From NCBI GenBank assembly GCA_965231145.1, contig OZ246420.1, positions 90,001 through 122,000 of the forward strand: a DNA stretch of 32,000 nucleotides, in the 5' to 3' direction. Under the pieces are notes generated by a model. It was not told the DNA's origin. It saw only the letters and a list, made by a program, of their open reading frames with translations, and did no database searches. Origin of the DNA: Candidatus Saccharimonadota bacterium. GTDB taxonomy: Bacteria; Patescibacteriota; Gracilibacteria; Absconditabacterales; Absconditicoccaceae. The translations under genes and the position numbers were made by a program. This document shows positions 2,329-31,229 of the stretch, in pieces (position 1 is the first letter of the stretch; every line of letters begins with the position of its first letter).

Positions 2329-2367
2329 ACTGCTGTTTTACATTTTGAATTTTAAATTTTATACTCA

Positions 2368-5313
2368 TTACGGTGTTGGTGGTGTAGCATTAGCTGGTGG
2401 AGTGTTTGCTGTTGTGTTAGTTCCTGATCAGCCGTTAGGCACCGGCGGAGCCGGTTGTGCTGGTGGTGTCGCTGTTCCCGGGGTTGGAGCAGGTGTTGGA
2501 GTGGGATTATTTGTTGTAGGAATTGGTTGATTGGTATTAGTGTTTGTATTGTTCGTCCCTGGATTAGTAGTCGTAGTTGTCGGAGCTGCTGGCGCTGGCT
2601 GTGGAGCCGGTTGTGCCGGTGGTGTTGGTGTCGCTCCTGGGTTTGTCGCTCCTGTCGCACTACCAGTTGGATTTACCGGAGGATTGTTAGTTGGGGGTGT
2701 CGGAGTTGGGTTAGTATTATTTGTATTTGTATTGGTAGCTGGAGGTTGTTGTGTTGGCTGTGTAGCAGGCGTGTTGCCAGTTTTTTGATTGAGCCGTTTT
2801 TCAAACTCGTTCGTAAATTTCGTTGAAGGACTATCTTTTTCAAACTTTTTTTTCATTTTTTCTATATCTTCTTTGCTGATCTTTATGTCGTCCCAATTTG
2901 ATTCCTTCGTAAGAGTTGTCGTTTTCTTTCCGTCTTTAGATTTTTTCGAGAAACCGTTGCCGGTGAGTGTATATGTTGAGCCTTCGGTATCTGTATATGT
3001 TGTGTGATCATCAGACAAAGCTCATCCAGAAGTCGTTGTGTCGAGAGCATCAATAGCGCTTAGTATTTGTTGTTGAGTTCAGCCATTTGCTCACTCTCTT
3101 CCTGTATAAAGAGAACGAATCTCTTCTTTGTTGAGTCCAAGTCACTTGTTGAGATATTCAAGGAATTTTTTGTCACTAAATGCATCGTCCACGCTCTTGT
3201 ATGCTGCACCTAAACCGCCAACTGTTGCAAGCTTGTTGACAAGATTGAGTCCAGAATCTCCATACTGTGCAAGGTCAAGGTTGTTTCACTTTGCATTGAA
3301 CATATTTCAGTCTGAAGGTGCGTTATAGAGTGCGCCGGTTGGTCACACCAGTTGTTGTACGGCTTGTGTCGCGCTGTTTTTGTCTTTGATGGTTGGTAGG
3401 AGAGCATTCATTTGTTCTTTCCCTTTTGATTTTTGATTTGTAAGAGTTCATTGGAAGAGGTTTTGTATTGCAGGAGAAACAACTGTACGAGCATTTTCTG
3501 ATACAGAGTCGTTGATCTGTCAGGTAATTCTGTCTCCTGTATTTTTAAGTGCCGCGATACTTGTAGGAGCGCCTCATGGCATAGGGATAATAGGAGCAGA
3601 GGCAAGCATGTTTCTCGCAAATTTATCCATGCCTTTAACGGTGTTCTCTGTGAAACTATTCCCCTTCATTGCAGTCATAAGGATGGTCCACATAAGTCCA
3701 ATTCCACAGATGTTGAGAATGATCCAAGGGAAAAAGTCTATCATGCCGGAGATACCAATATCCTGTGCAGGATTGTCGATACATAGTTTTGTGATGACGA
3801 GATTGATACATGTTTTGTTGCCCTCGCTCGATGTATCCATGCCGGTATCTTTAAGTGTGTCACCCTTCGTTAAGCCCTCGCTCAGAACAGAAAGAAACAC
3901 AATACTGATGCTAATAGCAAACGTGACGATAACCGGAAGAAAGACGAGTGCGATAACTTTGCTGACGCCAAATTTTTCCAGAGGTCAGAGCTTTTTTCCA
4001 AATCATAATGCCTCGGCAAGTACCAAAATCGGAGAGAATGCTATCATAATCCAGAGTACGGCAACTCTGATAATGAGAACGACACATAGTACAAGAAGAG
4101 GAAACAGATAGGCGATACCGATGATCGCTTTGATGATCGCTTCCATAGCCATCGAGCCATTTGACTTGTAGACGTTTACGTTGATACTTCCAAGGTTGAG
4201 AAGGCTTCCGTAGAGTGCATAAAATGCTCCTTGGTAACCCTTACCTTTTTGTGCGATGTTGGAAATGGTTTGACACAAAGATGCGTCGCTATCACATCAC
4301 TTGCCGCTGAGAAAATCTGTCTGTGAGTCGTGGAGTGCTTGTTTCAATGCGTCTGAACCTGTTTCGATTTTTTCACCAGCTTTACTAAATGAAAGGATAT
4401 TGTTTCCAAACATACAATATTCTTTATTTATCTCAGACCAGCTGACATTACTATTTCCTATCTTTGCTGAGCTGTCGATGCTTCCGTCTTCTCATTTTGG
4501 CACACCAAACGCGCTTGCCCATTCGTCGTCTTTTAGTAGCTTCTGATTTTTTATGGCACAAGGAAGGTAGTATTCGCTCTCGTTTTCTTCACCTTGTTTT
4601 GGATAAGTATAGAGTATGACAAATCACTTGTCTGTTGTTAGTACGTTACCAATGTCAGAAATATTCATGCTTGCTTTTACTCAAAACACAGGTTTTTTAC
4701 CCGCATTTTCATCTTTCAGTAGTTTTAATGGCAACCCTCCGATACCCACTGTCGCAACAGTAGAAACGTCGATAAGAGCGCCCATCACAAACCAGCTCGC
4801 TTGGATAGCTATACCTGCTAACAGAAGCTCTGTTATCTTTTGCATAGGATTTTTTGCGCCACCGATATTGAAGATGTAGGCAAGGATAGATCGTAAAAAC
4901 AAGAATCCAAGAGCAAAGTTTGCGAAATTCTTCACAATATTCCGGAAGGTAAAGAGTGCGGCGTCGAGCTGAAAATAACTTCCGTAGACCATACCGTTGT
5001 CGAGTGAAAGGCCTGCTAATGCGAGAAATGGCCATAGAAGCAGGTAGATGATCTTGAGTACAATTTCCAATGTGTCAGCGAAATCCTGTTTGCTATCTGT
5101 ATCTTTTTTCGTTGTCGTTGTGCTGCCCCCGTCTTCGGTAGTTCATTCGCTTGCGCCGCCGCCATCTGCGCTTTCTCCTACGCCTGTTGCAGAAGCATGA
5201 GGCACAAAAGATGAAGAATGAATGTCGAAAGGAGTATGTGAAAAAAACAGGGCAATACCCGCGCCCGAGGCAAGAAGAAATGTGATGAGTTTTTTTCGTA
5301 TTTTTGTTCTCAT
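2368..5313 (-). CDS. Polytopic membrane protein with signal peptide, 981 aa; TrbL/VirB6-like core (tentative), then a soluble region and a Pro/Thr/Asn-rich tail; paralog of 349..2328
   Basis: ORFs 5143..5364, 4681..5070, 4003..4278, 3574..3900 and 2428..3018 lie in one frame. I translated every gap and found 18 in-frame TGA and no TAA/TAG until TAA 2368..2370. ATG 5311..5313 gives MRTKIRKKLITFLLASGAGIALFF. The blocks NFANFALGFLFL and LLAGIAIQASWFVMGALIDVSTVATVGIG match the paralog. Confidence 0.85.
2371..2790 (-). repeat. Low-complexity Pro/Thr/Asn/Ala-rich C-terminal tail of gene 2368..5313, with imperfect direct DNA repeats
   Basis: The translation is dominated by PTPTPP, TNTNTN and PAQPAP units. 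gagccggttgtgctggtggtg at 2448 recurs as gagccggttgtgccggtggtg at 2604, 156 bp away. Confidence 0.8.
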
Positions 5314-5387
5314 TTTGCTGGCCAGCCAAATAAAGAAAAGCTCTTTATCTAGTATATCGGGCAAGCGCGCAAAAAGAAATTATAGAC

Positions 5388-6656
5388 CTATGAAAGGATG
5401 TGTAGCTCGTCTAAAAGTGTGCGATATTTGTCAAACTCCTCTCAAGTTCTTGACTTAATGAAATCTTTAACGATAATCTTTCGATCTATAAGGCTTTCTT
5501 GCAAGTTTTTCTGTGCAATCTCAAGTGTGAATGACATATCCGGAGAAAATGTTGTTTTTCTCTTTATGGCCCAGTCTTTCACAGTATGAAGAAGCTCCGG
5601 TTCGATATGCTTCTGGAGATCGTCATAGCCCAGTGATTCGGAAACGAGAGTGACGTGGGTGAGGGACGAGGGATAAGTGACGAGGGATACGTCTACTGAT
5701 CGGGTGCCACCGAAGTTTTCCAGTATTTTTATGTCAATCATTTTCTGGTGTTTTTCTATGGTAGCTTTTTCTATTTTTTCATCTGCAGAAAGAGTCAGGA
5801 CGATGTAAGGATTGATAGCTATTTGCTGTGCTTTTATGGTGTTAGTTTTCGCATCAACTTTATAGAGAAATTTGTGATGATCTTGTTCGAGAGGAGATGT
5901 ATATCGAACACTTCCCGCACAGAAATAATTTTTATATGCAAAAGGCATATGTATATGTCCGGAAATAAGTTCGATGTTTTTATTGTCCAAAAAAGCAGGA
6001 GAAAGCGCAATATCTTTGTAATCAAAGATGGCTTGCTGTCATGGGAATTTCGTATTTGCTATGTAGTAGTGGTGGATGATGGTAAGTTGTGGATATTTCT
6101 CAACGTATTGTTGTAATGTTGCATTTATAAGACCGCTTAAGCGTTCATTAGCATTTTTGGAGTTTAGTAGTTGAGTTATAGATGCATTGAATGCGTCTTT
6201 ACTTGAGGCGAGCAGAGACACATTCAACCCGGCCTTTTGCCCGGCAGGTGCGTCTGTACTCAGAGAGTTTATATGTTTAGAAAATGGGAAAAAGAGGATG
6301 TTTTTTCATTCTATCTCGTGCACTTCCGGCTCGGTAATAAAACGGATGATATTCTCTTTTTGCGGGAGAGCGTCTGCCATTTTTTTTCACTCTGCATAGA
6401 CGAACTGCTGACCAATCCAGTCGTGATTTCCGGCTAATACATACACATTTTTCCCACTTTTCCGAAGCGATAAAAAGAGGTCAAACAGGCGCGCAAGCGC
6501 CGTACGATCGTAGCTGAACATATACATATAATCGCCCAAAAAAATGATGTTTTTCTCATCATTGTTTTCTTGTGCGTACGATGCAATAGAGGCGATTATT
6601 GCATCGGCGTGTTTTGTTGTAATATGTATGTCACCGATTAATAACATAATTCTCAA
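5388..6656 (-). CDS. SbcD/Mre11-family metallophosphoesterase (putative DNA exonuclease subunit), 422 aa
   Basis: ORFs 6387..6656, 6039..6227 and 5442..5990 lie in one frame with 4 in-frame TGA (6387, 6306, 6039, 5442). The stop is TAG 5388..5390. Calcineurin-like phosphoesterase motifs occur in canonical order: GDIH, GDY, GNHD, HH, GHIH. The start is TTG 6654..6656 or ATG 6645..6647. Confidence 0.8.
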
Positions 6657-6887
6657 TGCGAAATGCTAAATTCTCAACAACTTTAAGACATAAAACTGAA
6701 AACTAAAATCTTTTCTAAGGATATCTTCATTAATGATATTACCTATAAAAAATTAAGACTTAAGTTTTTAGGTTTGAGTTGTTGTTGAGTTTATATGTGA
6801 ATAAGGAGGAGTTTGCAAAGGAAAAACAGTTGTTGAAAATTATGATCTGAATACTTATTATCTCGCTACAACAAAAAACACGACACT

Positions 6888-7535
6888 ATGCATGCACAAT
6901 ATTCAGATGACTACAACCAATTCTTGCTTTCTATTAACGCATTTGAGGTTAATTTTGATTTGCCTCATAAGCTCTCATCAGGCTTAAAGATTCCTTTCTA
7001 CTGTGATAATAGGCTTATCTTTTCGTACTTTCATGTCTATGAGTATGCGGTTCATGCTCTCAAAGATATGATACCAACTTATTTCCCGGAAATAGATGTT
7101 ATTGCTCCTGTTTCTACCGCTGGGCTGCCTCACGGATCAATATTGGGCTATCTTTTTATGAAGCCCCTTGTTTACATTCGTCCTGAAGCGAAAGCTTATG
7201 GTAAGCAAAAGCAAATAGAGGGCATATTTGAGTCAGGGAAAAGGGTGCTGATCGTAGAAGATCTGGTATTCACAGGAGAAGCAAGCTTACGGGCAGTGAG
7301 TGCTATAAGAGAAGCCGGCGGTGAAGTGGTTGGCGTCGTTAGCCTTTTCTCTTATGATCTTGCTATTGCTCAAGAGGCTTTCAAATCACACAATGTTGCG
7401 TTATGTCCTCTTACTACTTTTGCATCGCTTATCGCGACGGCTGAGGCTAAGGGAAATATTACTTCTGGGGAGAAATCTCATCTTATGGCGTGGCATAAAG
7501 ATCCATTTAAATGGAACACGCCTATGGCTGTATAA
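6888..7535 (+). CDS. pyrE: Orotate phosphoribosyltransferase, 215 aa
   Basis: The ORF is uninterrupted and ends at TAA 7533..7535. It carries the PRPP-binding motif VLIVEDLVFTGEAS. The N-terminal block LLSINAFEV...SGLKIPFYCDNRL resembles Bacillus-type PyrE. It contains no TGA codons. Confidence 0.9.
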   Translation: MHAQYSDDYNQFLLSINAFEVNFDLPHKLSSGLKIPFYCDNRLIFSYFHVYEYAVHALKDMIPTYFPEIDVIAPVSTAGLPHGSILGYLFMKPLVYIRPEAKAYGKQKQIEGIFESGKRVLIVEDLVFTGEASLRAVSAIREAGGEVVGVVSLFSYDLAIAQEAFKSHNVALCPLTTFASLIATAEAKGNITSGEKSHLMAWHKDPFKWNTPMAV

Positions 7536-7550
7536 AAAGTATATATAATT

Positions 7551-7582
7551 AAAAATCCGCAGTTTTTGCTGCGGATTTTTTT
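7551..7582. terminator. Bidirectional rho-independent terminator between convergent pyrE and gene 7592..9511
   Basis: The sequence is aaaaATCCGCAGtttttgCTGCGGATtttttt. It has a perfect 8-bp stem (7555..7562 with 7569..7576) and a 6-nt loop. An A-run lies on one side and a T-run on the other, so it works in both orientations. Confidence 0.85.
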
Positions 7583-7591
7583 GTCGTTAGA

Positions 7592-9511
7592 TTATTCGTC
7601 TTTCTCGAGTTCACCGTGCTCGATTTTGATCTGGAGTTGTTCAGAGGTCGCCTTAATGGTATTGAAGGTTTGTCCCATCTGTTTCCAGAGCATGGTGTTT
7701 TGTTCGATGAAGTGCTTTATGATGTTCATCATGTCGTTGTTCAGCGTCTTTGATCGATCATACGGAAGGCTATTGTCGATCGCTAATGTACGTGGAGAAC
7801 TGTCTTCGGTAGCGAGATTTGAGTTATTCTGCTTATCCTGGACAGGATTTGGGAGGACAAGGTATTTGTTTTTTTCCTGTCATATATTATTGTCATAATT
7901 TCCAGCGCGTGCGCGATCGGTTATCGCATCGTTTTGTGATTTTGTTTTCTGGATGTTCTCATCGACTACTTCTTTTTGCGCGTCAGAGTCATACATCGGC
8001 TTGAAGGCAAGGTTGACGTCATAAGAGACAAGTTTATTCATTTTCAGCTTATAGAGGCCAGTATCGAGAAATTCCTTTGGTTTGATATGTTTCATAAGCT
8101 GGCCTGAGTCTCTCATGGCGATCACGACTTTGTTGATTTCATCGATGATCTCTTCGATCGTCTTTAACTCTTTATCACTTTTCGCTACTTGTTCTTTTTT
8201 AACCGATATCTTACAGGTTTTACTTCCGAAAATGCCATTTGAGCTATATTGGGTGGTACAGTTACATTTTGTCTCACAGACCTCCTTATCGGCGTCGGGG
8301 AGGGATTCGCATTTTGCCATACACTTATTTGCTGCTTCGTTCATTGCCTCGCTGTTTTCTCCCTCGCCTCCTTCACCCAGACCTGATATTTGGTCTGCGA
8401 GGCTATCTCCTTCGCTATCGCCTTTCGATCCTTTCATAAACTGTTGGAGGGCGGACTGCACATTAATGTTTTTCATGAGCTGAGCGACCTTCTTTTCTGA
8501 CGCAAGGGCGTTCGTGGCTTGATTGCTACTCAGAGCGGTGCCACCATTGCTATTTGACGCTACAGACTCACCACCACACATAAGAGGGCTTGAGGTGCTG
8601 CTAGACCCCTTCTGAGAGGTTATTTGACTATTATATGTGCCTAATTGTTGGAGAGCAGAGATGTCGGTCTTATTTCTAGCTCCATTCTGCGAATTTAAAC
8701 CATTGGTTATCAGAGAAGAAATACCATTTTCTCATCCATTATTGCCTCATTCACTTCCTTCTCCTCATCCTATGTTATCCATATTGCCATTCTGATTGTT
8801 ACCAGAATCATAGAAACTTGTCTCCGGAGCCTTTTCGTTGGACTTGAATAAGATGTCACCGATTTTCTGGATATCGAGGAGAAGGTCAAATGGGCTGTCG
8901 TCAAGGGTGCCATTGAAAAAGATGTCATCGCCGTTGTTTACTGCGTCGAGGGTGTTTAGCTTGGCAGCTATGCTAAAACTGTTGTCAAACGCATCATAGA
9001 CAGTATTTCTACAAAGGGCGTATCTTTCCTGTGTATAGACTTCCTCGGTAGCATTTTTGCTGTTTTCGTCTGGCTGGACACACAGAGCTATCTTGGTACA
9101 ACTTTTGACTACTGCATCTCCGCTGATAGAAAATGCCTTCTTTTCGGTAGCTCCGGCAAACTTTGCGCTCAGCAGTGCATCGGTGCTTGCTATATTGGAA
9201 ATATCCTTTGCCTCGAGCGAGCAGCCATATTGGCTGTTAATATTTTGTGCAACCCCGCTAAATGTATCAAGATGGTTCTTGAGTGCATTTTTCCTTGCCA
9301 TCTTATGGGCGACATCATAGATATTTCCTTCTTCAGCGAGATTTTTCGTGAGAGAAGAGAAATCATTATCTTTGAGGTCTTCATAGGACTGCTGCATTTC
9401 TTCATCGACTGATTTTTCTTCACCATGCGTTGGTATGGAAAGCGCCAGGAAAATTCCTCCGAATAGGAGGATAAGGCTTTTGTATCCATATTTTCGCATT
9501 GCTATGCGCAT
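7592..9511 (-). CDS. Secreted protein of unknown function, 639 aa; last gene of the giant-protein operon
   Basis: ORFs 8765..9511 and 7880..8581 share a frame. The in-frame TGA are at 8765, 8747, 8732 and 7880, and the stop is TAA 7592..7594. The N-terminus MRIAMRKYGYKSLILLFGGIFLALSIPTHG is a signal peptide. The middle is Gly/Asn/Ser-rich (NIG-G-GEGSE-G-GNNG-G-ENG). There is a Cys block KCMAKCESLPDADKEVCETKCNC. I recognised no family. Confidence 0.85.
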
Positions 9512-9541
9512 AGTGAAAGCCGTGGGAAGGTAAAAGGTATG

Positions 9542-10696
9542 TTATTTGTCTCTTTGTTGGACATTTCTGAGTTTATAGTAGAGCTGATTGAGTGGTGTAT
9601 AGATACGGATAAGGGATTTTCTGAAATCCACGAGATCTTCATAGTATGCAAGTAGCCCTATATGTACTGGAAACGTGGTCTGCATATTTTGCAATGTCTT
9701 CTCCGTATAGAGGATGGCGTCAGCGCTTAGTGTGATCTCTTCGTTGAGACGTATCGTTTCCTGCTGTGCTTCCTGTGAGATATCGCTGAATGCGCGGAAT
9801 TCATTGTATTCGGGGTATTGGATGCTTTCCTGAGCAAGCGTAATAAAGAGTTTATAGAAGAGGAGTTCGTTATAGAGAAGGTTATGGAAGCTGTCCCATG
9901 CGAGCGTGTTTTGATTGTCGAATGAGCAGACAACGAACTGTTTTGCATCTTTTTCACACTCCTTTGACTGGTTTTTGAGGAGTTTTTCCGCGTCTATGTA
10001 TTTCGTCTTGTCTGACATTTCCTTCACGTTTTCTATGTACTCTTTGAGGACGTTTCTTGTTTCCGGGTGGTTACAGGCAGCTTCTTTATCAGTTCCTTCC
10101 TTGTCGCTCATATAAAGCGTATCCTTCTTCTTACAGATGCTTTCTCCCGAGCCGAAGTATGTATCAGAAAATGCTTTTATGGCCTCGTCGGTAGAATCAG
10201 ACTGATTACTATAAAGTTGTACCAGTTTCACCTTACTTATATCGTTGATAACGAGCGCAAAGAGCTTTGGAAGGAAGAGAGCAAAGTCACATGAAGTCAT
10301 GTCTCCATCTCGTTTGCAGTCTTCTACTTTAAGGTCTTCCCGGTCATATTCCTTGGTAAACTCTTTGATCTTTTCCATCTCGACGTCGCCTTTTGAACAG
10401 AGCAAGCCGACAAAAAACGATGATTGCGGATCATAATAACGTCATTTGGCGCTAGGATCTGGGAAGCCCTGAGACTTTGACATGGCTGTACAGTATGATT
10501 CGATGAGTCCTTTTCTGCTCTTATTTTCCTGGAGCGTAGAAGAGATGCTTTTCATCATGTTTGTCGTAAATCACTGCTTCGTCGTGTCAGCTGTATATGC
10601 CTCTTTGGAAGATTTCCAAAATATCAGTGCGATGATCGCACCGAGGCAAATGATACTGATAGACACTCTACGGAGTGATGTTGATGAATAACGCAT
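9542..10696 (-). CDS. N-terminally anchored Cys-rich protein of unknown function, 384 aa
   Basis: ATG 10694..10696 gives MRYSSTSLRRVSISIICLGAIIALIFW, a transmembrane anchor. The in-frame TGA are at 10571 and 10442, and the stop is TAA 9542..9544. The start lies 7 nt after the TAA of the upstream gene. Confidence 0.8.
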
Positions 10697-10703
10697 GACG
10701 TTT

Positions 10704-12149
10704 TTAATAACTACACTTTCCTCATACATTGGTACATTGATATTCGCAGGCTTCATTTAAGTTCTTGGTAATACTCTTGTCTTTTTGAGCATCGCCGAGC
10801 AGATTGGTCGTGTCGTGTACCATACTGCTGACCGCAGGGATCTTTTTAGTCACTACCAGCGGATCTGCAAGCACATGTTTCTGCCACGACGCCTTGCTTT
10901 GTGCGAGTGTCTCATCGACCGTACTATTGAGCTTTGCATAAAGATTTAACAGTGCGCGGTTTGTCGTCGAGTCTGGGGTAATGATGTCGAGCGGAGCAGG
11001 TTCCGGTGCAAATTGTACTTTCGTCATACTTGACGAATCTTTGCTATAGATCTCCTTCTGGCTATTGATCGTTGATGAAAGCCCATTTCCAAGGTTTGTT
11101 ACTTTGTTGGCAGCCTTTTCTGTATGCTCATCTCATTCTTTATCATTTTGACTCTCTGCTTCATCTCCACTTTCCTCTTCATCAATATTCTCATCTTCAT
11201 CTTTGGTCGGTGGTTTTTCAATACCACCCACTCACTCTAAGAGCTTATTTTGCTGTTTATTGAAACCAGGCTTTTCGCAGTCTAGTTCTGTCTGACTCGA
11301 GAGTGTACATTTCCATTTGCGAAGGGACTCTCTGAGCTTGTCTTTTAACTCATTGGTTTTTGGCTTATCTTCTTCATTGATACTGTCAATATCTTCCCCA
11401 TATTCCTCATACTCACTGTCGCACGAATTGAAACCTCTTGCGCACTTATACTCTTCCACGAGTTTCTTATAGTTGACGTCCGTCAACGTGATTCCCGGAT
11501 CCTCTTTGTATTGAGCGGTAAATGCCTTGAATGCATCGGTATAGCCTCCGGCGATAAATCTTTTATATGATTGATTGAGAGATCGAAGAGCGGCCATAAG
11601 TGTTCCTACTGCAGAAGAGGGAGCACCGGAGGCTTTCATAAATGAGGAGTCATCTTCTCCGTATTTTTTGAGAACTTCACTCACTTTTTCCTGATAGTCT
11701 TTTGGAGGAGTCGAATATAAGCCTGCTTCTCCCAGTTCGAATATAGCTTCAGCGATATCATTGTCTATCTTTTCCAGTTTTTTCCAGTCTCTCATGAGAG
11801 CTTTTGCATTTGTCATGACTTCCAGTTCTTCGCGAGTTGTAGAGCTCTCGAGTTCTGTGTGGATGGTTCCAAGAAGAACGGCATAGGTAAGAACATTTTT
11901 ACCCTTACTATTGAGTCTTTCTACGATATTCTGCAATGTCTGGTCTCACTCTCCGCTACCATCGGACTCTCATTGATTAGTCATGTTTTTGAGTGTTTCG
12001 AGCATTTCATTAGAAAATTTGATGTATTGCTCGATGATCTGAGAGGTGTTGGAACATGTTTCGCATGATTGACCTTCTGCAAAAGCGACACCGTAGAGGG
12101 TGCCTGCTAATCATAGAAGAACTCATATCTTGAGCAGTCGTTTTTTCAT
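10704..12149 (-). CDS. Secreted protein of unknown function with an acidic linker, 481 aa
   Basis: ORFs 11232..11936 and 10722..11027 share a frame, with 7 in-frame TGA (12123, 12111, 11970, 11946, 11232, 11133, 10722). ATG 12147..12149 gives MKKRLLKI-G-VLL-G-LAGTLYGVAFA|EGQ. The stop is TAA 10704..10706. There is an acidic stretch DEDENIDEEESGDEAESQNDKE. Confidence 0.85.
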
Positions 12150-12170
12150 CAATCTATGCGAGTATAAAAC

Positions 12171-13424
12171 TTAATCTAATCATTGGAGGAGTGATCCAAG
12201 GCCTCACAAGCTACCGCCTCAACCACCACCCATTCATCCAAAAAGGCCTCATAGCCCGGCTAGTCAACCTCAGCCGCCTTCATCATCGCCTCCGTCTTCG
12301 CTTCCATCTCATAGAGACGGGAGGAGTCATTTGAGCTTGCTGAGTCATCCAAGTTTTGAAGTCGCTCATCCGAGGCTACCTCATAGACCTTTTCCTCATT
12401 TGAGGAGTCATTTTAACTTGTCAAGTCCGCCTAGTTTGCCCAATGCTCACTCTCCATCTCCGTTACCTCCGAATGTATCGGTGAGGTTTGATAAACCACC
12501 TCAACCACCAGCTCCTCATCCTATGCCTCCAAATCCTCCCGGTGTTCCTCATGCGCCTCATAGTTTGCTTTCCGGTGTTGAACATTCTTTAGTGCCGGCT
12601 TGTATTTTACCATTTACTGCAGAGAAGGTCTCGTTGAAATGAGAGAATTTATCTACTAACACTCATCGTCTTGTTTCGAGCAGATAGCTCTGGGTGTAGG
12701 TTTTCCATGTGTCCTTCATAAAGGTGTTTGCTTTTCTTGCCATCAGTAGCTGTATGTATGTCATCTCTTCGTCGATACGTCTTCTTGAGAGATCTTCACA
12801 GGCCTTTTGGTCATAGCGAGAGTCCAGGTCGCTGGAAACGAGGAAAAATTTACGAGCGACACATGATGACTGAATACATACTGCGGTGTATCTTGCTGAA
12901 AGTGGAAGGGAATCATAGTTGCTAATTTCACAACTTTCATTGTCTACTTTAACTCAACGCCACTTTGCTGGCTCCCAGATCTCAACAAATTTCGTTTGTA
13001 TGCTGACAGGTAACTTTCCTGTTCCAACGTCTGTTCGTTCTTTGACAGCATCTTTCCATTCTTTTGCTTTTGAGTCTTCGCTTCCTTCTACTTTGTTATC
13101 CAGTTTAAAGAAGCCTTTACTGATCAACTGGTCGAAGGCATAAGGACTTTCAGGATTATCTCTGTTTTCTTGAGCGCTTTCACAGCCTTCAGTGAGGATT
13201 TCTTGCTGACAGCAATATGCCTTAAGATTATCCATAGCAGTGTGCATGTCGTCAGTGCTAAGAGGCTTGTCGCTTTTGAGTTTCAGATTGTCTATAGCAT
13301 CTTTTGGTTCATGTATCACCAAGCTACAATCATACAACGTATCCGCAAAAAGAGGGGCGCTCCGTATGGAGAGCGCTCCTATGATGGTCAAACCTATGAG
13401 CTTTCGGATAGCATTGTGTTTCAT
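12171..13424 (-). CDS. Secreted protein of unknown function with an extreme Gly-rich, TGA-dense C-terminal tail, 417 aa
   Basis: ATG 13422..13424 gives MKHNAIRKLIGLTIIGALSIRSAPLFA|DT. The standard-code ORF stops at TGA 12954, but the frame stays open to TAA 12171..12173, with 21 TGA in total. Without read-through there would be an ~800-nt gap in an otherwise tightly packed operon. Confidence 0.8.
12174..12563 (-). repeat. Gly-rich low-complexity tail (~130 codons) in which 19 codons are TGA, containing a duplicated KLGGL(D/S)KLKGLL unit
   Basis: With TGA read as G the tail reads KLGGAGGTPGGFGGIGGGAGGGGGLSNLTDTFGGNGDGEGALGKLGGLDKLKGLLKGGKGLGGSLGGATSKLGGLSKLKGLLPSLGDGSEDGGDDEGGGGGLAGLGGLFGGMGGGGGGSLGGLGSLLQGLD. 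The DNA repeat gaggagtcatttgagcttg (12321) recurs as gaggagtcattttaacttg (12402). Confidence 0.8.
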
Positions 13425-13429
13425 GTCTG

Positions 13430-16400
13430 CTATGGCAACGGCTGAGGGATAAAGGTAGTGTTTCCTATTTCTTTTCCTTGAAGATCATAGAAGGTGATAG
13501 TGATATTACGATCTTTATAAGAGTATGTTCATCGATATTGATTTTTATAGGTATCTGGTAGTCGGATGTCTCATTTCGTGCTTATATAGATGTGACAGGT
13601 ATCCGCCTGAGCAATACATGTGCCATTGCTAAATCCATGCGCATATCCATCTGCTACTTTTTGTGGCTTCCAGAGATTAGTATCGACGACTATAGTATTT
13701 AGCGCTGTCTTTCCTGCGTACGAGAGAGAGAATAGTACAATGCCTGTCCTTTTCTCTTTGATAAGTACACGAGGTGTATTTGCAGTAAACGAAACTACTG
13801 TATCTATAGACTCTTTAAAGTAGCTATCAATAGATATTTCACCACTTTCTTTATCTACTGCTCCAATACGTGTTCAGCTGCTATTGTGCAGGTCGATGAG
13901 TGCGCTTTTGACAAATACGCCTCATGAGAGTGACAGTTGATTGAATCCAAGAGGGAACTGAGATGTGATCATATTGTCTTTCCCTTTACCAGTTAATATA
14001 GATCGGATGCCATCTCTTTCTCTTTCAAAGAGTATGCTACTCTTATCTTGTCATACAGATACTGTTGTCTGTATAACGTTTTCATTATTCATCGGTTCAC
14101 TGATGTCAGTAATATTTACTTGAGGCTGTTTCCATTGTATCTTGATCGTATAAGTTGCTATATTGTCGTTTTGATCGATGGCATTGATTTGCCACGTCTC
14201 TACATCTTCACCACGATATGAGAGCGATGCGAGCGTGTTTGCTCAGGTGTCAGCTTGCGAACTTCCGTCAGCAAAGGTAATTGCATTGCCTTTGACGCCA
14301 CTGCTGTCACGCCATTGGACGACGACTCCATAGTCATTTCCTATAACAGGTGACAGCGTATATCATTGCCCATCGATAGTTTTGCTTTCTACTCTTATGA
14401 GGGCTACCGTTGGTGTTGGTCAGAGGTCATCACCTGCCAATTGAGAGCTGGCTACCTCCTGGTGTGATCGAGGAGAAGACTTTTCAAGCAGTGCTCATCT
14501 ATTGAGCGTTCTATATGAGAGCTTCGCAAGAGACATGTATTGCCGTTGTCTTGGAAGTCCGTCCAGAGAGACAGAGAGAGTTTCTTCTTCCGGATTGAAG
14601 TACTGAATGCTGAGTATGCTCTTGTCGTTTACTAAGTCGCTTACTCTCTTTTGTCCAAATATTTCATCGTAGAGGAAGACTCATTGGAGATCTGTATTTT
14701 CTGGTAAGATGAGTACATATTTTCTCGTATCTTTATTAGAGCGGTGCATATATCTTGCTTCTACAGAGTTATTAATTTGTAAGATATAGCCTTGTCTATT
14801 ATCGTTGTTCCAGCGAAGTTGTATACTGTCATATCTTTGTCCATCGAGTGAGAATGCTTGTGGTGCGCTCCTTTCTGACCATATTTTGAACATGCTTCAT
14901 CCTATGCTCAATCGCCCATCTCTTTCTACCGCCTTCGCAATATCTGCAGGCGAAGAGAATGTCGGAGTAACGTAGAGACGCGTGAATGTTGTACCGTTGT
15001 TCGCTGGCACGGGTTGGCTGTATTTTATCCGGATTTGTTTGTTGTCCCACATGATGATATCGTCTGTAGCATCCCCGTTGAGATCAGTGCGAGACTGATG
15101 TGCTTGGAGCGTTGCTATATTGTCTTGTCTGTCGACAACATTTACCATCTCACCAGACGTGTTTTTTACAAAGACACCCTGTATGTACTGGCTGATATCA
15201 GGCTGGATCGTGAGAGTGCTTGTTGTGCTATGTGCATGGGCGGTATGTGATGCGTCCATAGTGCTAGTTACTGCAGCAGCGAGAAGAGGTTTTTTCTCTG
15301 CGTCTTTCTCAGTGTTACTCACCATCTCCAGTCCGTTGTCTATAGTAGTAATAGTCTTTTCTACATAGCTTCTTGTTTCGTTGTATGTGAGGAGCGACAT
15401 ATTGAGATCGGTTGGCCCATAGGTGTCGAGCGCATTTGCAAAGCCAGTCATTACTTTCTTGTTGAGTTCAAGGTAGCTCTTCATCGGATTTGGCTCATCT
15501 TTAATTGCTTTGATGATAGATTTGTCTGCAGTAAAGAGCGAACTTCCGAGTGTTGATGACTCTGTATCACTACTTACCAGGGTTGTCTGTAGCGATGTAA
15601 CGAAAGAGTCATAGTCATGGTTGATCTTGTCCTGCATAGATGAGATATCATTTTTTATGCGGTCTATGCGAGACTGAGCCTGATGGTTGACAGCATCTAC
15701 ACCCTCGATATTAGCCGCTGTATTGCTTGGAGTTGAGAGGAGTGCAATCACATGACGAAGGGTTCTTTTTCTCTCTAATGATGTATCAGCTTCCAGTAGT
15801 GCGTGTGCCTGTGTAAGCAGGTCTGTGCGAGCTTGGGCAGCATTGTCATAGCTTAGATCCCAGAGATGAGGAGATGTGAAGCTCTGAAGTGTGTTGGTAA
15901 TGCCTCCAGCTGTGTTTCCTCATCCAGCGCTTTCATCACTGACGTTTTTGATGATAGGATTGCTGTCCTTGTTTACTTGCTCTGCGTACTCTTCGAGCGT
16001 CTTATAGATTTCATCAAAGTTAAGCTGCATATTAATATAGGTGTCGACATGTATATCTGACCCCTGAACTGGTGGTTTGATCTTTGTAACACTGATAGAG
16101 TCAAACGGCTCTACCTTCCAAGTTCTCTGTGTCAGTTGTTCTACTCTTGTTTTGACTCACTTTTCTCCGACCATGCCGATCCCTCATTTTACGATACAGA
16201 AGATCTTTGCGATATATTCAGCATATTGGAGAGTGGCGATAATCTCTGGTGTGATTTTTGGAATCTTTGGTGCAGGCGGAAGGTTTGGCATGTCGAGTTC
16301 CACATTTGGTGTGAATGAAGGAAGCTCAGGAAGTTTTGGTGGTTCAGGAATTTCTGGTGCGCTTGGGATCGTAACGCTCAGCTGTCACTGGACACCTGCG

Positions 16401-19400
16401 GATGGTGCTGGTGGGATGTCTGGAATTTGTGGGAGAGGAATAGGCTTTGGTACAAAATTGAATTTTGGTAGAAGTATATCCATACCCATATTTATATGAG
16501 ACAGGTCGATGAACAGATGTGGCATCCTAAATGGAGGTATTGGGAACACTGGTAATGGAATGCAGAGGATGCTGAGTGTGCATGCATAGAAATCGTAATT
16601 GTCTACCTTACACTTTCCGCATTTTGTTTTCCAATTTACTGAGTAGTCTATAAGAGCCTGCCATGTTTTGATAGAACTTATGTTTTGCGTCATACCATTG
16701 ACGTACTGGTCGAACTTTCTTGAGTTTTTCTGTAGCCATTCAGTCAGGTTGTTTGTGAACTTAGAGACAGTATCAGACGCTTCCGTCAAATATCTTTGTG
16801 AAGCTCCCAGCCATTTGTCTAGTTCTTGAGGGAACTCCTTATATTTATCGAGTATTTCAATGTTCTTTTTTACTGTTTTTATCAGCTCTTCGTTTTTGCT
16901 CGTTATACTTCCGCCGCCAGCGCTATTTCGATCCTGTGCGGTCTTCTCATTTCTTTGGAGCCAATTATTTAAGTATGCTTTATATCTGACGATATCTTCT
17001 TGGGCTATGAAAGGCACTTGTACATTGATGTTTTTTGTGCTGATATTGATAAGCGGTACGTTTTCAAAGAGTGTTGAGAGTGCATCAAAAGGATTAGAAA
17101 CATCATTGTCATTGTTTCTCATACCTTCTTGTGTGAAGAGTTTTTGTGATACGTCTTGTCTTGATGATGGAGTCGGTTGATTCTTTTCTTCTTCAGGTTC
17201 CTCGTCGTAGAGCGCTCTTATCTTCTTCAGTGATACATCATCAAATCCCTTAAAGAGCGATGACATCTCAGGCATGTATACGTTGACTGAAACGGTTGTA
17301 AGATTGTTAATGATATACCTTATTTGTGGATCGAGCCGGTTCTTCATAAGACATTTGACGAGTCCTTTTACGTCTCATCCCTGTACTTCAAGTTTGACTT
17401 GTTCTCCTACTTTGAGTGTCTCACTATCCTGATTTCCTCCTCCTTCCCCACCTTCGCTTATATCTTCTATGGTGGGAGTAGTATTGAAATTAACAGAGCG
17501 CCCGTCGTATGAGCCGTCATTTTCTCCCTCAGCTGAAACCGATGGAATAACTTCTTTTATCTTACCCATGATGTCATCCATCATACCTCCGCCTTGTCCT
17601 TGACCTCATACAAGATTTGAAATCATCTTAAACGGAGAACCAGATTTTCATCATTTTAGTTGAGGTGTGCTGCATGCTCCTCCTTCTGCTGCGTCATATT
17701 GCCGCTGTTCAAGAGCGGGTCTTGCGTCTCCTGGAGTAATCTGTGCTTCATCTTTTTTCGCTGTTACCACACAATTTCCCGAGATATGTTTTACTGGATT
17801 TTGTAGGCTTGCTCCGGCTGCGTATGAGCCATAACACATAGCAACACCTTCCTTATTTGTTATAGCTGGTGAGTCATATACTCTTACATTTGATGGATAA
17901 CTACCTCCGCCCGCCCAGTAGAAACCATCCGTAGGAGACTTCTGACCATATGGAGCAGGTACGTCATATGCTCCAGGGCGGATAGTTCCTGGATAGAAGA
18001 GAGATGGAAGACCTTTGTCGTCAGTCAATTTACATCAGAAAACATTGTAGGTTCCTGGAGAGAGGAATGCTACATTAAATGGCGCTTGTGTTCATTGTTG
18101 AGCCATAGTTTTTTTGTATCCACCTTTTTCAGCTTGGAATCCCTTACAAAATCCTTGCACAGCTCCATCTACTTGTCTTTCTGTATCTTGAGTCATGCTT
18201 GTCAGTTGTGGATTGTTGCTACTCATATCAAGACTACCATTTTCAGAGAGGGACTTGTTGTCCCACTTTTCAAGTATCTGATCCATGCCAGGCATCTTGC
18301 TGATATCCGGATTGCTACCTTGTGATGCACCTTTGATCTTGCTTTGTATGTCGGTGAGCTTTGATGTCAGCGCAGAACTTTGTTGCTTTTGCATTTCTTG
18401 CATCTTTGGTGCAAGGTCGGTAAACGACTGGGTAAAGTTTTTTGTTCCATTTGATGTAAACTGTTCAAATCATTGCTGGCAGCTATCGGTAGAATGTGTT
18501 TTTATGTCAGTTGCCTGATCTCCGTTAATGTTACCGAGAGAAATATGTACTAATTTTGGTGCCTTATATTTGAGAACTTCGCTGAACGTTACGCTTTGTC
18601 ATCCTTTAAGTGAAATATTATCTATCATGTACTGATAGCCATTTTCCATATTCCAGTTTACGGTTGAGCCTGCTGGTAGACTTCCTTTGTTCCAGCTTGG
18701 TATTTCTCCTTCACTATTTTTACTAATTCTCCATGGTCACTTGATGTCATGCAGATAGGTAACCATTGTATCGCTTTTTGCTTCAATGGTTGTCTTCACG
18801 CGTACTTCTTCACCATCTACCAATGGTCCTGAAGATGGTTTTACTCTTTCATATTGTTTATATGTTACCACAGGAGATGTCTCGTCCAGCATGGTGCCTG
18901 GCATATATGCTATGGTTTCCAGGCTGTTAGCCGGTTCGTATGACGGTAAGGTGCTGATAGGTGATGCAGAATATTGCATGAGAGTCGGTAGCCCACTATC
19001 TATCATGCTTTGTATATTAAATCCAGAGAAGTCACTTTCTGTTCCCTTGAGGAGATTTTGTATCTGTGGATCAGCAGCAAGAGGGCTATCAGGGCTTTCT
19101 TCATTTACTTCTGGAGGAAGAGAAAGTCACTGCCAGTGAACCAGGCTGTTGTCGTATATCTTTTCATTTTCACTCAAAGTGACGCCATATGATTTGACTA
19201 ATTTAATATGATCTTCTTGTCTTGTCTTTCGCTCGCTATCACAGGTAACCTTATTTTTTGAAATGTAATTATCTCCTGCAGAAGTGCGTCCACCATAGAA
19301 AATCTTAATGTTGCCTGCGGTATCATTTGTAACGATATCGACCTTATTGTCTCCGTCCATATCATGCACAAAAAACTCATATGCATGAGCGATGCTTTGA

Positions 19401-22400
19401 TCTCAACCTGGTATATCTAAACAGACTTGCTTTCCATCGACATCTACAGTTCAACCATTGTTTTTATAGACTCTCAGTTTATCATGAGATGTCTGGATGA
19501 TGATATCCTCATAGCTATCTCCATTGGCATCGCCAGCAAAGGCATTTTTGATGCCATCATCAATAACCATAAGCATTCACAAGTCCTTATAAGGATCTTG
19601 CCCGCCTTTGTTTTTCAGAATCCTTGCAGATCAGTCGGAATATGTTACCAACAGATCCTTTTGTCCATCTTTGTCTACATCAAGAGGAATAGTTTTTGAG
19701 ATGCTTTTCTCTGTTTCTGTGAAAACTGTTTTTCATTGACCTCCATCGTAATTTGTTCCCGCAATTGTTGTGTTTTCGCTTTGACGTCCAAGCAGAGGAT
19801 CGCCAAGCGTAATAAGGAAAGGAGACGCTCCATGCTGAGTAGCTTTTCCTACTTTGTCTCCTTCGGCAAAAGCGGTTGCTGCATGAAAAGTGTTTTTCCG
19901 GTTTGTATTGGTATCAGTATCGACAGATTGCTCAATACCTCACTTCCATGGAGAAGATGAACCAAGAGGCACAGCATTTTTATCATAGATCATCCATCCG
20001 CGGCTGCTATTTGTTGATCCACCAAGCCAGATTGATTCAAGGCCGATGCTGTCTTCTAGATGAATATTACTGGTGTTTATAGTTGCGTGGATGCGTAGTG
20101 TTCCTACTATTTTTCCTTGTATTTTTACATTCCATACAGTATCCCCATTTGTATATTGATTGCTGTTTACTATCTCAGCGCTATTACCTGTAGATGAGTT
20201 TATGGACCATACAGGCGATCCATTGATCACGATAGTATTGTTTATGATCTCGTTGGTTTCAATAACGCTGTCTGTTTGGCGAGCCGTATAGAGAAGAGTG
20301 TTTTCGCCAAATGATTCATCTGCTGTTCCGGCTCTGAGAGTTAATGAGCTCGCGCTTCCTAATGCAATATATCCTTTTGTATTGAGATCATATGTCAACA
20401 CATTGTCTCTTTTGGTGAGACGTATATCTGATGCATCATAGATCTGACCATTGTTGTTGATACGAAGCAGTGCAGGGAGGATATTGTTTGGGTTGGTGAG
20501 AAGTGTTGTTACGGCAAGTGCTTTATCTGACTTTGTGAGGATGTTCTGCGCTTCATTTGATTGCTGTGAGAAGTAGTTCCATCTATTGCCTCGGTCGCTT
20601 CCAGCAAGTATCATATACATAGCATTGAGATTGTCTGTTTTCCAGAAAGGAGAAAGTATCGTTATCTTTTTTGCATCAGGCAACTGTGCCTCTGGTGCTA
20701 CTCATGCAAGAGTAGCATAAATATATTGTGTTCCTGCGGCTTTCTCGCTGCTAAGAGTAAATGGAGCGCTTCCGTTGGTTGCCGTAGTTACTTGCCCACT
20801 TGATGATCCATTTATCTTGATACCACCAATCGTATGGAGGTTGATGCTTACAGGAGCATCAATAGGGTTGTTCCATCTATCATATGCAAACACCTGTCCG
20901 CTGGTGTTTTTTTCAGCCAAGAAACTATCGGGTGCTTGGATGCCCACACGATATGGCTTTGCAGGATGGATAGTCACAGGTATAGTTTTTAGAGGAAGGC
21001 CTGGAATTTCTAGCGTGAGAGTGTCTTGTCCTGCTTGAAATGAAGGATAAAGGATAATCGTAGCAACGCCACCTTTGATGGTAAATGAAGATTGCTCTGA
21101 AAATTCTTTTGCGGTTACTCTTTGACCGTTAAGTGTATAGCTACTTTCTTTTACTCTTCCTGGAAGGAGGAGTCACTGAGTACTCTTGATGACACCATGT
21201 GTTTCTAAGGGTTTCTTATCTGGCGTAGTAAGTGTCAGTACGATCCTTGGAACCGCATTTTCCTGTAGCTGGTCAACGCCGTTTTGATTGCGGAAAAAAG
21301 CTGATGTGCTTTCAGGAAGAGTGATGTCTATGTGGGATGTATTTACTGTATTATGCTTCACCTCGAGGATTCATTCGGTGAGCGAGATTGTTTTTCTGAT
21401 AGGCGAGAGAGAGTCAGAAGAAATTGGTGTCAGTAGCAGCTCAACTTCTGCAGACGCAGAAGGAACGTCGCTCAAATCCAAGACGAACATCTCATTTTTA
21501 TCAAAACGTTGGAGTTCTATACCTGTCGTGATATTGCCGTTGGTAATGATTTTCCCTTGAGAAGAAGAGAGACGGAAGGTGTTTGTACTTTGTTCAACAG
21601 CATTTCAGTATGCATCATATCACATCACTGAGAAAGGCATCTCAGATCTTTTGAGTATTTTATCTGTCGGCGTAATAATAGTCGCAGTGACAAGAGGCCC
21701 AGCGATAACAGGAACGATAAGTTTTTTCTCTGTACAACGAACGTTTTGACAGATCTTTACTGTGAGGATACTTGCTCCAATATTTTTGCCCGCAAGAGCT
21801 ACTTTCAATGTACGAGGGGTCTTGTAAAGATCTCCCTGGAATGCATACTCAGCATTACACACATTTCTTCCTTCGATGATCGGACAGTTTTCTCCCGTTC
21901 CTGAGATACGGATATTAAGATTGCCGCTGTCCTTTAAACTTGCGATCGTCAGAGTTGCTCCACTTGTGTTGTCTACACTGAGAGTATTCTTATTGAGTCT
22001 CGCTGTAAGAGTGTTATCAAACGCCGCAATCAATGTTTGTGCTTCATCAGAAAGAGCCCCAAGAGATGAGTTTGTAAGAGACCTCCAAGTTGGGTTAAGT
22101 TCTTCTACGTTATCTCCTAGGGTGACATCGGTGTCTTTAAATTGCTGTGATATAAGTACAGGTCATTTTGCATTTGAGAAATTTACTTTCACTACATCAG
22201 AAATAGTTTGTTCCTGCATAGATTTCATCCAGCATCCTAGAGAAGCTGGCCATTGAAGCAGAGGTGTTGTGCCATCTGTATCAATACCACATTTTTTATC
22301 TCTTTCTGTTGCCTGCATATCAAGAGCCGCATTGACCGCGTCAGTGCTTGAAATCTCTGCCGTTGCTGCGAGTTTCTGTTGTTCTATATTGTTGATAACA

Positions 22401-25111: not shown

Positions 25112-25224
25112 GGCGAACACCCTGATAATCAATAAGATAACCGGCTATTTATTCTTTCTATGCAAATATAAATTGATTGCAAGATCTTGCGAAGCCAATA
25201 CCATTTAAATGATATATAATATAT

Positions 25225-26961: not shown

Positions 26962-27012
26962 GATGTAGAGAATATATTAATAAAGAAGTTTAATTATGTT
27001 GATTAATCTTTC

Positions 27013-30000: not shown

Positions 30001-30762
30001 TGTAAGTGGAGTGTCGCGCCCTACCGCAACTCCCTCGAAACATGAGTCTCCGTCAAATCACATCCCTGGCGTATAACTTTGACCAAGTCATCCCATCCCT
30101 TGTTGCGTAGGGTCTTCACATCCTTCGATTTTGCTGTAGTAGATATCGAAAGGAGTAATAGACGAAATTGTTCGTAATTCTCCAGAACCCGCGCTAAATG
30201 AACCACCTGTTCCACTACAATCAGGAAGTCCAAGACTGATCCATCATACAAATGTGGTTCAAGGAGTACACATGGGACTTGGTAGTATGCTTACAAGCGG
30301 AGCTGGTGTACAGATCGCTGTTCATCAAGAAAATCACGCTATCGCTTCTCCTGCAGGACATGAACCATCGCTAAATCAACCAACTCCGCCTCAGAGAGAA
30401 TATGATAAAATGTCAAATGCAAACATCTCTGTCGTGAGGCTTCACGAGGCAATGCGAGATCCATCTATCGTATCTGTACGAGAAAAACGTCCGTCCGGAG
30501 CGATGAGAATGTCTTCTGTGCCTACAGCGTCAGGAAGCTTTATAAGATGGTCATTCGTTCCTGAAAACTCTACGAGAGCACTGCTTGATGCGTCTCCATC
30601 TGTAGTGATAAGGAGTTTTTGAAAATAGGGAATATCCCTCAGGATGCTTGTATCAAGAGTAAGAGCACTTACGCTTTCTGAAATAAGAGCTGCCGCTCAG
30701 AGGCTAAGAGCTAGCGTGACAAGCCGCTTTTTGTTTCACTGCTTTTGTTCCATAACGAACAT
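27013..30762 (-). CDS. Secreted tail-fibre-like protein with ~6 Cys-motif modules and a C-terminal peptidase-S74 chaperone domain, ~1,249 aa; paralog of 25276..26961
   Basis: I translated the frame codon by codon from 30786 to 27013. It contains 42 in-frame TGA and no TAA/TAG between TAA 30784..30786 (upstream bound) and TAA 27013..27015. Starting at ATG 30760..30762 or 30751..30753 gives MEQKQ-G-NKKRLVTLALSL-G-AAALISESVSA, a signal peptide. It shares SLTTEM, CPAGE and VGIGTDTPGATLHVNGDILTD with the paralog. It also has SDRNVKKNI...GYTFKWI...VGLVAQEI...VEYPNLLAGIISALKEL and a similar C-terminal end (FFRDNGI versus FFSINGI). Confidence 0.8.
27370..27717 (-). other. Peptidase_S74-type chaperone domain of gene 27013..30762, interrupted by a Gln/Gly insert
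   Basis: The signature matches that at 25620..25875. An extra segment, SSRDIG-G-TPSSPAQGGL-G-QTQQ-G-QQQ-G-QQ-G-QGD, lies between the AQE and YPN blocks. Confidence 0.65.
28330..29844 (-). repeat. Six protein-level modules (~80-115 aa period), each carrying a C-x-C-(D/E/F)-x-(D/N/E)-(P)-x(4-9)-C motif
   Basis: The six motifs are TPCNCFNPDPAYPGKC (29803..29844), PMCACETEDPTTPGKC (29491..29532), FRCPCDTNMYATDAAC (29206..29247), PRCACDLDPDSFDC (28921..28956), PRCDCDVDITTQNC (28576..28611) and VNCSCDLDPMTEDC (28330..28365). Confidence 0.7.
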
Positions 30763-31084: not shown

Positions 31085-31229
31085 ATAAAAGCGCGTTCCA
31101 TTTCGGTCGAATGCGTGGTTTCTTAACAGCTTACTCTTTCGTTCAAGGTTGCCGGCAAGCTTCCTTGGATAAATTTATGATAAAAAATTTTTCAAACAAA
31201 ACATTCAAAAAAACATTAAATTTGAGAAT

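Follow-up and report, generated by a model that had tools for sequence, protein, structure and literature searches.

We analyzed a 32-kb window, the whole stretch of 32,000 nucleotides (nt) taken from contig OZ246420.1 of assembly GCA_965231145.1 (Absconditabacterales), and focused on one of its minus-strand genes, 12171..13424. The gene encodes a predicted secreted protein of 417 residues, and its last 130 codons form a glycine-rich tail in which 19 codons are TGA. We read this tail as a translated, lineage-specific extension that grew by duplication and in which the accumulation of UGA codons follows mainly from the glycine content, and we estimate the probability of this explanation as a whole at about three in four. 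The gene, its parts and its immediate surroundings are as follows.

12171..13424, minus strand: whole gene, 417 codons plus a TAA stop, TGA read as Gly
13344..13424, minus strand: predicted Sec signal peptide, residues 1-27, MKHNAIRKLIGLTIIGALSIRSAPLFA, cleavage before DTLYDC, judged by eye only
12579..13343, minus strand: conserved Cys-bearing domain, residues 28-282, of a family of 225 representatives; the proteins of relatives end here
12954..12956, minus strand: first in-frame TGA (codon 157); read by the standard code, the protein would end here after 156 amino acids (aa)
12174..12578, minus strand: C-terminal extension made up of TPESK and the 130-codon Gly tail, residues 283-417, absent from orthologs; lineage-specific and coding
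12492..12563, minus strand: first Gly block LGGAGGTPGGFGGIGGGAGGGGGL, residues 288-311, uncharged, with single hydrophobic residues
12321..12440, minus strand: cationic Lys/Leu/Gly block, residues 329-368, 8 K and 1 D, holding both KLGGL(D/S)KLKGLL units
12402-12437, minus strand: repeat unit KLGGLDKLKGLL
12321-12356, minus strand: repeat unit KLGGLSKLKGLL
12273..12311, minus strand: acidic block GDGSEDGGDDEGG, residues 372-384, 6 D/E, with a 12-nt (4-codon) tandem repeat in 2.9 copies
12174..12272, minus strand: Gly/Leu-rich, uncharged C-terminal end GGGLAGLGGLFGGMGGGGGGSLGGLGSLLQGLD, residues 385-417
12171-12173, minus strand: TAA stop of the 417-codon gene
12150..12170, minus strand: 21-nt spacer from the tail stop codon to the ATG of the next operon gene
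12331..12642, plus strand: mirror-image Pro/His/Ser-rich open reading frame (ORF), TTG start, 103 aa, not a gene

The ATG of the gene sits 5 nt past the stop codon of the upstream gene, which encodes a protein of 3904 aa. Within the tail, a neutral-to-acidic linker separates the first Gly block (288-311) from the cationic block (329-368). Written with g for a TGA codon, the tail reads LgGAgGTPGGFGGIGgGAGGgGGLSNLTDTFGGNGDGEgALGKLGGLDKLKgLLKgGKGLgGSLGgATSKLGgLSKLKgLLPSLgDGSEDGGDDEGGgGgLAGLgGLFGgMGGGgGGSLgGLGSLLQgLD, and the segments GLGGSLGGATSK and LGGLSK are expected as tryptic peptides. The initial annotation, made from the DNA letters, had counted 130 codons with 19 TGA in 12174..12563 on the minus strand, about 40 GGN codons and about 45% glycine, and our recount agrees with it: there are 17 GGA, 12 GGT, 10 GGC and 1 GGG codons, no TGG, and 59 of the 130 codons specify Gly when TGA does. 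Its C-terminal end (...LFGgMGGGgGGSLgGLGSLLQgLD, then TAA) likewise matches the sequence, and a standard-code reading does stop 260 codons before the end, at 12954. The tail had also been called the densest recoding in the window, and the other nine genes indeed reach at most 10 TGA in 130 codons, compared with 19 here. The window and ~100 kb of related loci contained no other stretch with at least 18 Gly in 50 codons (36%).

UGA as glycine and the coding status of the tail

Stop-free stretches of at least 150 codons, taken over both strands, amount to 17.6 kb under code 11 and to 56.5 kb when TGA is sense, and ten tightly packed minus-strand genes emerge only with TGA as sense. To assign an amino acid to TGA, we aligned the eight operon proteins to their orthologs at locus L001 (GCA_030429145.1) with TGA masked as X. 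Among 144 TGA partners, 76 were GGN (53%), 24 were TGA (17%), 44 were other codons and none was TGG, while TGG paired with TGG 70 times and never with TGA. Exchanges between Gly codons and TGA were also seen between two paralogous fibre proteins of the window and in three conserved columns of the target family. Moreover, one silent difference between the two KLGGL(D/S)KLKGLL units is a GGA-TGA exchange, which confirms the code from within the tail. No tRNA gene lies in the window. The alignments thus show that this bacterium, related to Absconditabacteria/SR1 and Gracilibacteria, reads UGA as glycine and not as Trp, according to translation table 25. The reading frame, the glycine assignment and the read-through past 12954, as put forward in the initial annotation, are supported by both alignments and codon usage.

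Under this two-stop code the tail region is open in three of its six frames, and openness alone is therefore not evidence of coding. We scored synonymous-codon log-likelihood with the usage of the other nine genes as reference. The Gly frame of the tail scored 0.096 per codon, compared with 0.098±0.047 for real in-frame windows of 130 codons, and the other frames of the region scored -0.26 to +0.02. The preference among GGN codons (GGA > GGT > GGC >> GGG) follows the same order in the tail as in the background. The initial annotation had named missing selection or codon periodicity as a sign against the tail; by the synonymous-codon score it is on a par with real genes. Between the two KLGGL(D/S)KLKGLL units, 8 of 36 bases and 6 codons are different but only 1 of 12 residues (P=0.0002 under random substitution), whereas in the three antisense frames the same repeat copies differ at 4-5 residues (4 of 11 in the frame of the Pro-rich ORF). 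Hence, the tail is coding in the Gly frame and appears to be under some mild constraint at the protein level.

The 103-aa Pro-rich ORF on the plus strand (12331..12642) had been described as spurious from the start, and we reach the same view. Its frame scores -0.032, antisense frames averaging -0.050±0.067, and its repeat differences are non-conservative. We found no promoter-like site on the plus strand in the tail region; an Rfam scan and promoter and terminator scans of the region gave nothing above chance, and a look-up of the ORF as a called gene gave no match. It is a mirror artefact of the GGN and TGA codons.

In the Logan assembly of run ERR4405441, one contig matches the window at 4479 of 4479 nt, covering the whole tail and both of its junctions and reaching window position 12710. 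This assembly breaks at 12711..12842, between a contig that ends at 12843 and another that begins at 12710; each matches the window with 100% identity. The break falls inside the conserved domain and may reflect strain variation or a drop in coverage.

Relatives of the protein and origin of the tail

We compared the protein with its relatives at two levels. Residues 1-288 match seven homologs at 48-58% identity, all ending in ...(K/R)MCS plus 1-4 residues. Six of them have 279-302 aa; for the seventh, P0005, the gene call stops at 253 aa, but the frame continues to 284 aa under code 25. In the DNA of loci L001, L002, L005, L007 and L009, a TAA stop lies 2-5 codons past the last Cys, and the distance from this stop to the next gene is 21 nt in L001 and L002, 32-57 nt in L007 and L005, and ~80 nt in L009. 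Scanning genomes and metagenomes for relatives turned up only five distinct loci, all of them with identities of 58% or less. The target gene aligns with its L001 ortholog over residues 6-282 only, though the whole operon is collinear, and no separate small gene occupies the position of the tail in the orthologous loci. A profile search covering 1.84 billion representative proteins identified 225 family members. Counting proteins of 250-345 aa as full length, 122 of 130 full-length representatives end 1-6 residues past the last Cys and the other eight lack that Cys; none of the 130 has a C-terminal extension or a Gly/Trp-rich end. Many gene calls in the family give TGA as W; these were made with a read-through code, so that a tail would have shown if present. 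The window protein ends 136 residues past C281, unlike its family.

Membership of the window protein in this family is indicated by E-values down to 3e-98, by the cysteines (C33, C71, C72, C81, C165, C183, C188 and C209 are invariant) and by the N-terminal signal peptide, an equivalent hydrophobic segment being present in all orthologs. The conserved domain has no Pfam match, a PDB profile search with the N-domain gave no match, and an AF2 model of the N-domain built from homologs was mostly helical and poor, with a predicted local distance difference test score (pLDDT) of 43. The only form of the window protein in the public collection (NCBI contig, Logan assemblies) is the code-11 product of 156 aa; the full 417-aa form was not found there under either reading of TGA. 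Following a suggestion in the initial annotation, we searched for Gly tails on the equivalent genes of related code-25 genomes and found none. All of these genes stop just past the conserved C-terminal Cys, at the equivalent of ~12575 and not of 12954, the standard-code stop; the ortholog ending that the initial annotation had named as evidence against its reading does not occur. Judged from sequence, the 135 residues from T283 onward (12578..12174) are private to this lineage and not a feature of the family.

We next consider where these residues came from. Homologs of the tail numbered 0 at E<=0.01 among 8000 scored candidates from a collection of 5.8 billion proteins. Pfam, NCBIfam and PHROGs gave no match, and PDB sequences gave only chance matches to D-Ala-D-Ala ligase (E ~0.5-0.7). 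Searches with tblastn and blastn in the window and the related loci revealed no paralogous source segment for the tail, and searches of the literature on glycine-rich proteins in Gracilibacteria and on run ERR4405441 found nothing relevant. The tail does contain internal duplications, among them short ones with KLGG seeds and the following pairs.

12321-12356 and 12402-12437, minus strand: the 36-nt units with KLGGL(D/S)KLKGLL
12213-12239 and 12495-12521, minus strand: GgMGGGgGG and GgGAGGgGG, both TGA codons at the same positions
12234-12257 and 12366-12389, minus strand: GLgGLFGg and GLgGSLGg

The 21-nt spacer to the next gene has the same length in the window, L001 and L002, and this intact spacer indicates that the added codons arose within the coding region, ahead of the stop, and not through loss of the stop codon. 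Stop-codon loss with read-through was ruled out on the same ground. Insertion of a mobile element was ruled out as well, as no inverted repeats flank the tail. We propose that the ancestral protein would have had ~280 residues, a signal peptide, nine conserved cysteines and an end 1-6 residues past the last Cys. Small duplications of Gly-rich units would then have accumulated in this lineage ahead of the stop codon, probably as a result of slippage or unequal recombination, and lengthened the coding sequence in frame at its 3' end. The outcome would be the 135 added residues, arranged as Gly block, cationic K/L/G block, acidic block and Gly/Leu end. Relatives end in a short ...SAG, SVG or SAAGG, and we infer that such ends could have seeded the expansion.

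Codon usage, physical properties and rival explanations

TGA is an ordinary Gly codon in the window: it makes up 1.6% of all codons, occurs in all ten genes and accounts for 133 of the 740 Gly codons of the other genes (18%), above GGC or GGG. In the tail its share rises to 19/59 (32%), which differs from the other genes (binomial p=0.006, Fisher p=0.008), but not significantly from gene 27013-30783, where 42 of 151 Gly codons (28%) are TGA (p=0.32). At least five of the 19 tail TGAs stand at shared positions in duplicated units and hence do not represent independent events. Outside the tail, TGA is preceded by A in 50% of cases (GGN 35%) and by T in 11% (GGN 36%), and 13 of the 19 tail TGAs follow an A; this context adds only a little to the excess. 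A preference for TGA beside other Gly codons was rejected (20% vs 17%, p=0.37). That the tail is the densest reassigned-stop cluster in the window is mainly due to its glycine content of 45%, given that this genome uses UGA routinely for Gly. The density thus mostly reflects Gly content multiplied by ordinary TGA usage, and the remaining surplus is plausibly explained by the duplication of units that already carried TGA.

We examined the physical properties of the tail with Kyte-Doolittle hydropathy (18-residue windows sampled every 6 residues) and the hydrophobic moment (muH) at 100 degrees per residue. Hydropathy peaks at 0.73 at the C-terminal end, which is too polar for a transmembrane helix, and the last 49 residues contain no K or R. 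The initial annotation had described KLGGL(D/S)KLKGLL as a duplicated amphipathic unit. The duplication stands (12402-12437 and 12321-12356), but the two units have muH values of 0.16 and 0.11, below the shuffle mean of 0.28, and so the unit is not amphipathic as an alpha-helix; the 42-residue block has a muH of 0.11, compared with 0.13 for shuffles. Residues 329-368 carry a net positive charge (8 K, 1 D), as cationic membrane-active peptides do. Hydrophobic residues recur with a period of 3-3.3, a value reached by fewer than 0.1% of shuffles, and the period-3 power of Gly is 0.11, below the shuffle mean of 0.25. Overall, the tail bears the marks of a low-complexity Gly-rich extension, namely composition bias, micro-duplications, lack of homologs and absence from orthologs. 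It is most likely a flexible, disordered "glycine-loop" spacer or an adhesive appendage on an extracellular component of a surface operon; a role in sorting, in anchoring by a transmembrane segment or in gating translation is improbable.

A tail of this origin could also be neutral junk, that is, a runaway low-complexity expansion of the 3' end that is tolerated and translated, has no function and drifts freely in length. Its occurrence in a single lineage among more than 130 family members, its lack of homologs or domain matches and its construction from micro-duplications would all fit, and the operon protein encoded at 2371..5313, which has an unaligned Pro/Thr/Asn tail of its own, suggests a general growth of low-complexity ends. 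We nevertheless regard this as possible but doubtful, as the KLGGLxKLKGLL copies kept 11 of 12 residues despite 8 changes in 36 bases (P=0.0002), the charge blocks follow an ordered layout, and the synonymous-codon usage matches that of bona fide genes. At the other extreme, the tail might be a new functional module, born de novo by in-frame micro-duplication at the terminus of a surface protein of fixed length, that combines a glycine-loop or period-3 extended helix with a cationic Lys/Leu/Gly segment and with which an episymbiotic or predatory cell would bind or perturb the envelope of its host. We think this unlikely; if true, it would provide a datable domain birth, with the duplications themselves spreading the UGA-Gly codons. 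Quite unlikely, too, is a membrane-active or pore-forming cationic Gly/Leu/Lys module with which a predatory or episymbiotic cell would target the envelope of its host. The 8 Lys in the 40 residues of the cationic block, followed by the uncharged Gly/Leu end, secretion from a surface operon beside a giant FG-GAP-type protein, and the hydrophobic period of ~3-3.3 (<0.1% of shuffles) speak for it. However, the muH of the units (0.11-0.16) falls short of the random value of 0.28, a Gly content of 45% makes stable helices unlikely, the hydropathy of the C-terminal end lies well under the transmembrane level, and Pfam, NCBIfam and PDB hold no matching family of bacteriocins or antimicrobial peptides.

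The initial annotation had also considered a secretion or sorting signal or membrane anchor, and a segment whose translation is gated by the supply of tRNA-Gly(UCA); neither fared well. Recognition by a sortase-, rhombosortase- or exosortase-like system, or membrane insertion, would suit a C-terminal position on a secreted protein and a last part that is Gly-rich and hydrophobic. The tail matches no NCBIfam or Pfam model even at E<=10, lacks the combination of an LPXTG, PEP or GlyGly-type motif with a transmembrane helix and a basic cluster (its hydropathy is low and the final 49 residues have no basic residue), is with 135 residues far longer than such signals, and is dispensed with by all relatives, which function without it. 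We therefore hold a sorting or anchoring signal to be very unlikely. That UGA density throttles or gates translation of the tail seems highly improbable: the TGA share of 32% does exceed the window background of 18% (p=0.006), but TGA is commoner than GGG or GGC and is found in all ten genes, gene 27013-30783 has a similar share (28%), at least 5 of the 19 TGAs are not independent since they sit at shared duplicated positions, and gating has no obvious purpose for a tail that relatives lack. Hardly credible, finally, are a true gene in the antisense Pro-rich ORF, a Trp/Gly-rich tail with TGA as Trp, or a fusion created by misassembly. Three of six frames are open and public calls do give TGA as W in homologs, yet the antisense frame has antisense-type codon usage, non-conservative repeat differences and no promoter-like site, TGA faced TGG in 0 of 144 cases, the ERR4405441 contig from a second assembler is identical over the tail and both junctions (4479/4479 nt), and orthologous loci have no separate small gene here.

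Several points weigh against our preferred explanation, a translated Gly-rich extension that grew by duplication. Translation of the tail is read from the DNA itself, and the constraint seen in its internal repeats comes from three pairs, of which one is strong (P=0.0002) and the other two are weak (P=0.17 and 0.035). The closest relatives have <=58% identity, so that constraint was gauged from internal repeats and not between species. Disorder of the tail is deduced from its composition, and the spacer or adhesive role from composition together with the operon context. With the nucleotide context taken into account, ~11 TGA would be expected where 19 are observed, which leaves a ~1.7-fold excess, and a weak specific preference for TGA in the tail could thus still contribute.

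Operon context and comparison with known systems

The gene belongs to an eight-gene operon (352..25144, minus strand) that is collinear, gene by gene, with L001 at 41-67% aa identity. Its products are the 3904-aa FG-GAP-type protein, four secreted Cys-bearing proteins including the target, a metallophosphoesterase and two paralogous polytopic membrane proteins; for the majority there is no Pfam family. Apparently, the operon is an uncharacterised cell-surface system that is conserved in code-25 Patescibacteria. Attachment to the host is a presumed role of giant FG-GAP-type proteins in these episymbionts (PMC8080830).

Further features of the operon and its surroundings are listed here.

2371..2850, minus strand: C-terminal part of the membrane-protein gene 2371..5313, a ~160-residue Pro/Thr/Asn low-complexity tail that does not align with the L001 ortholog
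6846..7535, plus strand: phosphoribosyltransferase-domain gene (PF00156, pyrE-like) between two operon genes that are adjacent in L001
10707..12149, minus strand: next secreted protein, ending in ...NVGGKCSY, a Cys-Ser-x end like the ...CS-x of the target family
25279..26976, minus strand: fibre-like protein with Peptidase_S74 (endosialidase intramolecular chaperone, PF13884, E=4e-17) near the C-terminus
27016..30783, minus strand: longer fibre-like paralog, sharing the conserved Peptidase_S74 stretch by eye only, with 42 TGA, which make up 28% of its Gly codons, the window's second-highest share
31227..32000, plus strand: start of a secreted subtilase (Peptidase_S8, PF00082) that runs off the window end

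The tail of gene 2371..5313 is thus the second low-complexity C-terminal tail in the operon. The gene at 6846..7535 looks like an insertion or rearrangement in this lineage. The ending of the 10707..12149 protein hints at a common function of C-terminal cysteines among the secreted proteins of the operon, for example in intermolecular disulfides.

These observations carry a lesson for annotation. The standard code leaves a stump of 156 aa in the public collection and hides the 135-residue tail, and a Pro-rich mirror ORF is open on the opposite strand. A local cluster of reassigned stop codons need not mean regulation; here it goes back to amino-acid composition and to the duplication of codon-bearing units. 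The tail also represents a well-delimited gain of C-terminal low complexity compared with more than 120 relatives with a rigid C-terminus, which makes it useful for studying the birth of such regions. The host operon may merit more attention than the tail.

Reading of UGA as Gly (translation table 25) is known for Absconditabacteria/SR1 and Gracilibacteria (PMC8080830, referring to Campbell et al. 2013 and Hanke et al. 2014). The window is alike in that its in-frame TGA fills conserved Gly positions and Gly positions of the tail; the code itself is not new here, and only the local TGA density is unusual, which follows from the Gly content. The closest known proteins are secreted, Cys-rich proteins of ~280 aa from code-25 Patescibacteria, encoded on JAUIDC010000001.1 (GCA_030429145.1, a 279-aa gene), JAGOPC010000006.1 and the SR1 metagenome-assembled genome contig JAPLUU010000021.1. 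These orthologs are 48-58% identical to the window protein over residues 1-282 (SR1 members 23-24%) and share with it the signal peptide, the conserved cysteines and the place in a collinear eight-gene operon. They stop 1-6 residues past the last Cys, whereas the window protein carries 135 more residues. As both the code and Gly-rich low-complexity tails were already known, what is particular here is a 135-residue addition in a family with a fixed C-terminus, and no new mechanism is involved.

Other glycine-rich systems resemble the tail in part. Polyglycine-II helix domains occur in the snow-flea antifreeze protein and the gp38 adhesins of T-even phages; the tail has no Gly period of 3 and no PHROG or PDB match, and a fold of the polyglycine-II type is neither supported nor excluded for it. 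The Lys/Leu/Gly composition of residues 329-368, together with secretion by what is probably an episymbiont or predator, may recall, by analogy, Gly-Leu-rich cationic antimicrobial peptides and the Gly-rich, unstructured translocation domains of colicins. The tail differs from these in being C-terminal, not a free peptide or an N-terminal domain, in not being alpha-amphipathic and in lacking a family match.

Glycine-rich "glycine-loop" regions are found in the end domains of loricrin and keratins, in plant glycine-rich cell-wall proteins and in the PE_PGRS tails of mycobacteria. The tail may be likened to them, as its Gly runs are broken by single aliphatic or aromatic residues (LGGAGGTPGGFGGIGGGAGGGGGL), it seems to have expanded by internal duplication and it is probably flexible. 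It shares no sequence homology with them, however, and it is distinguished by its cationic and acidic blocks and by being the addition of a single lineage to a bacterial protein of otherwise fixed length.

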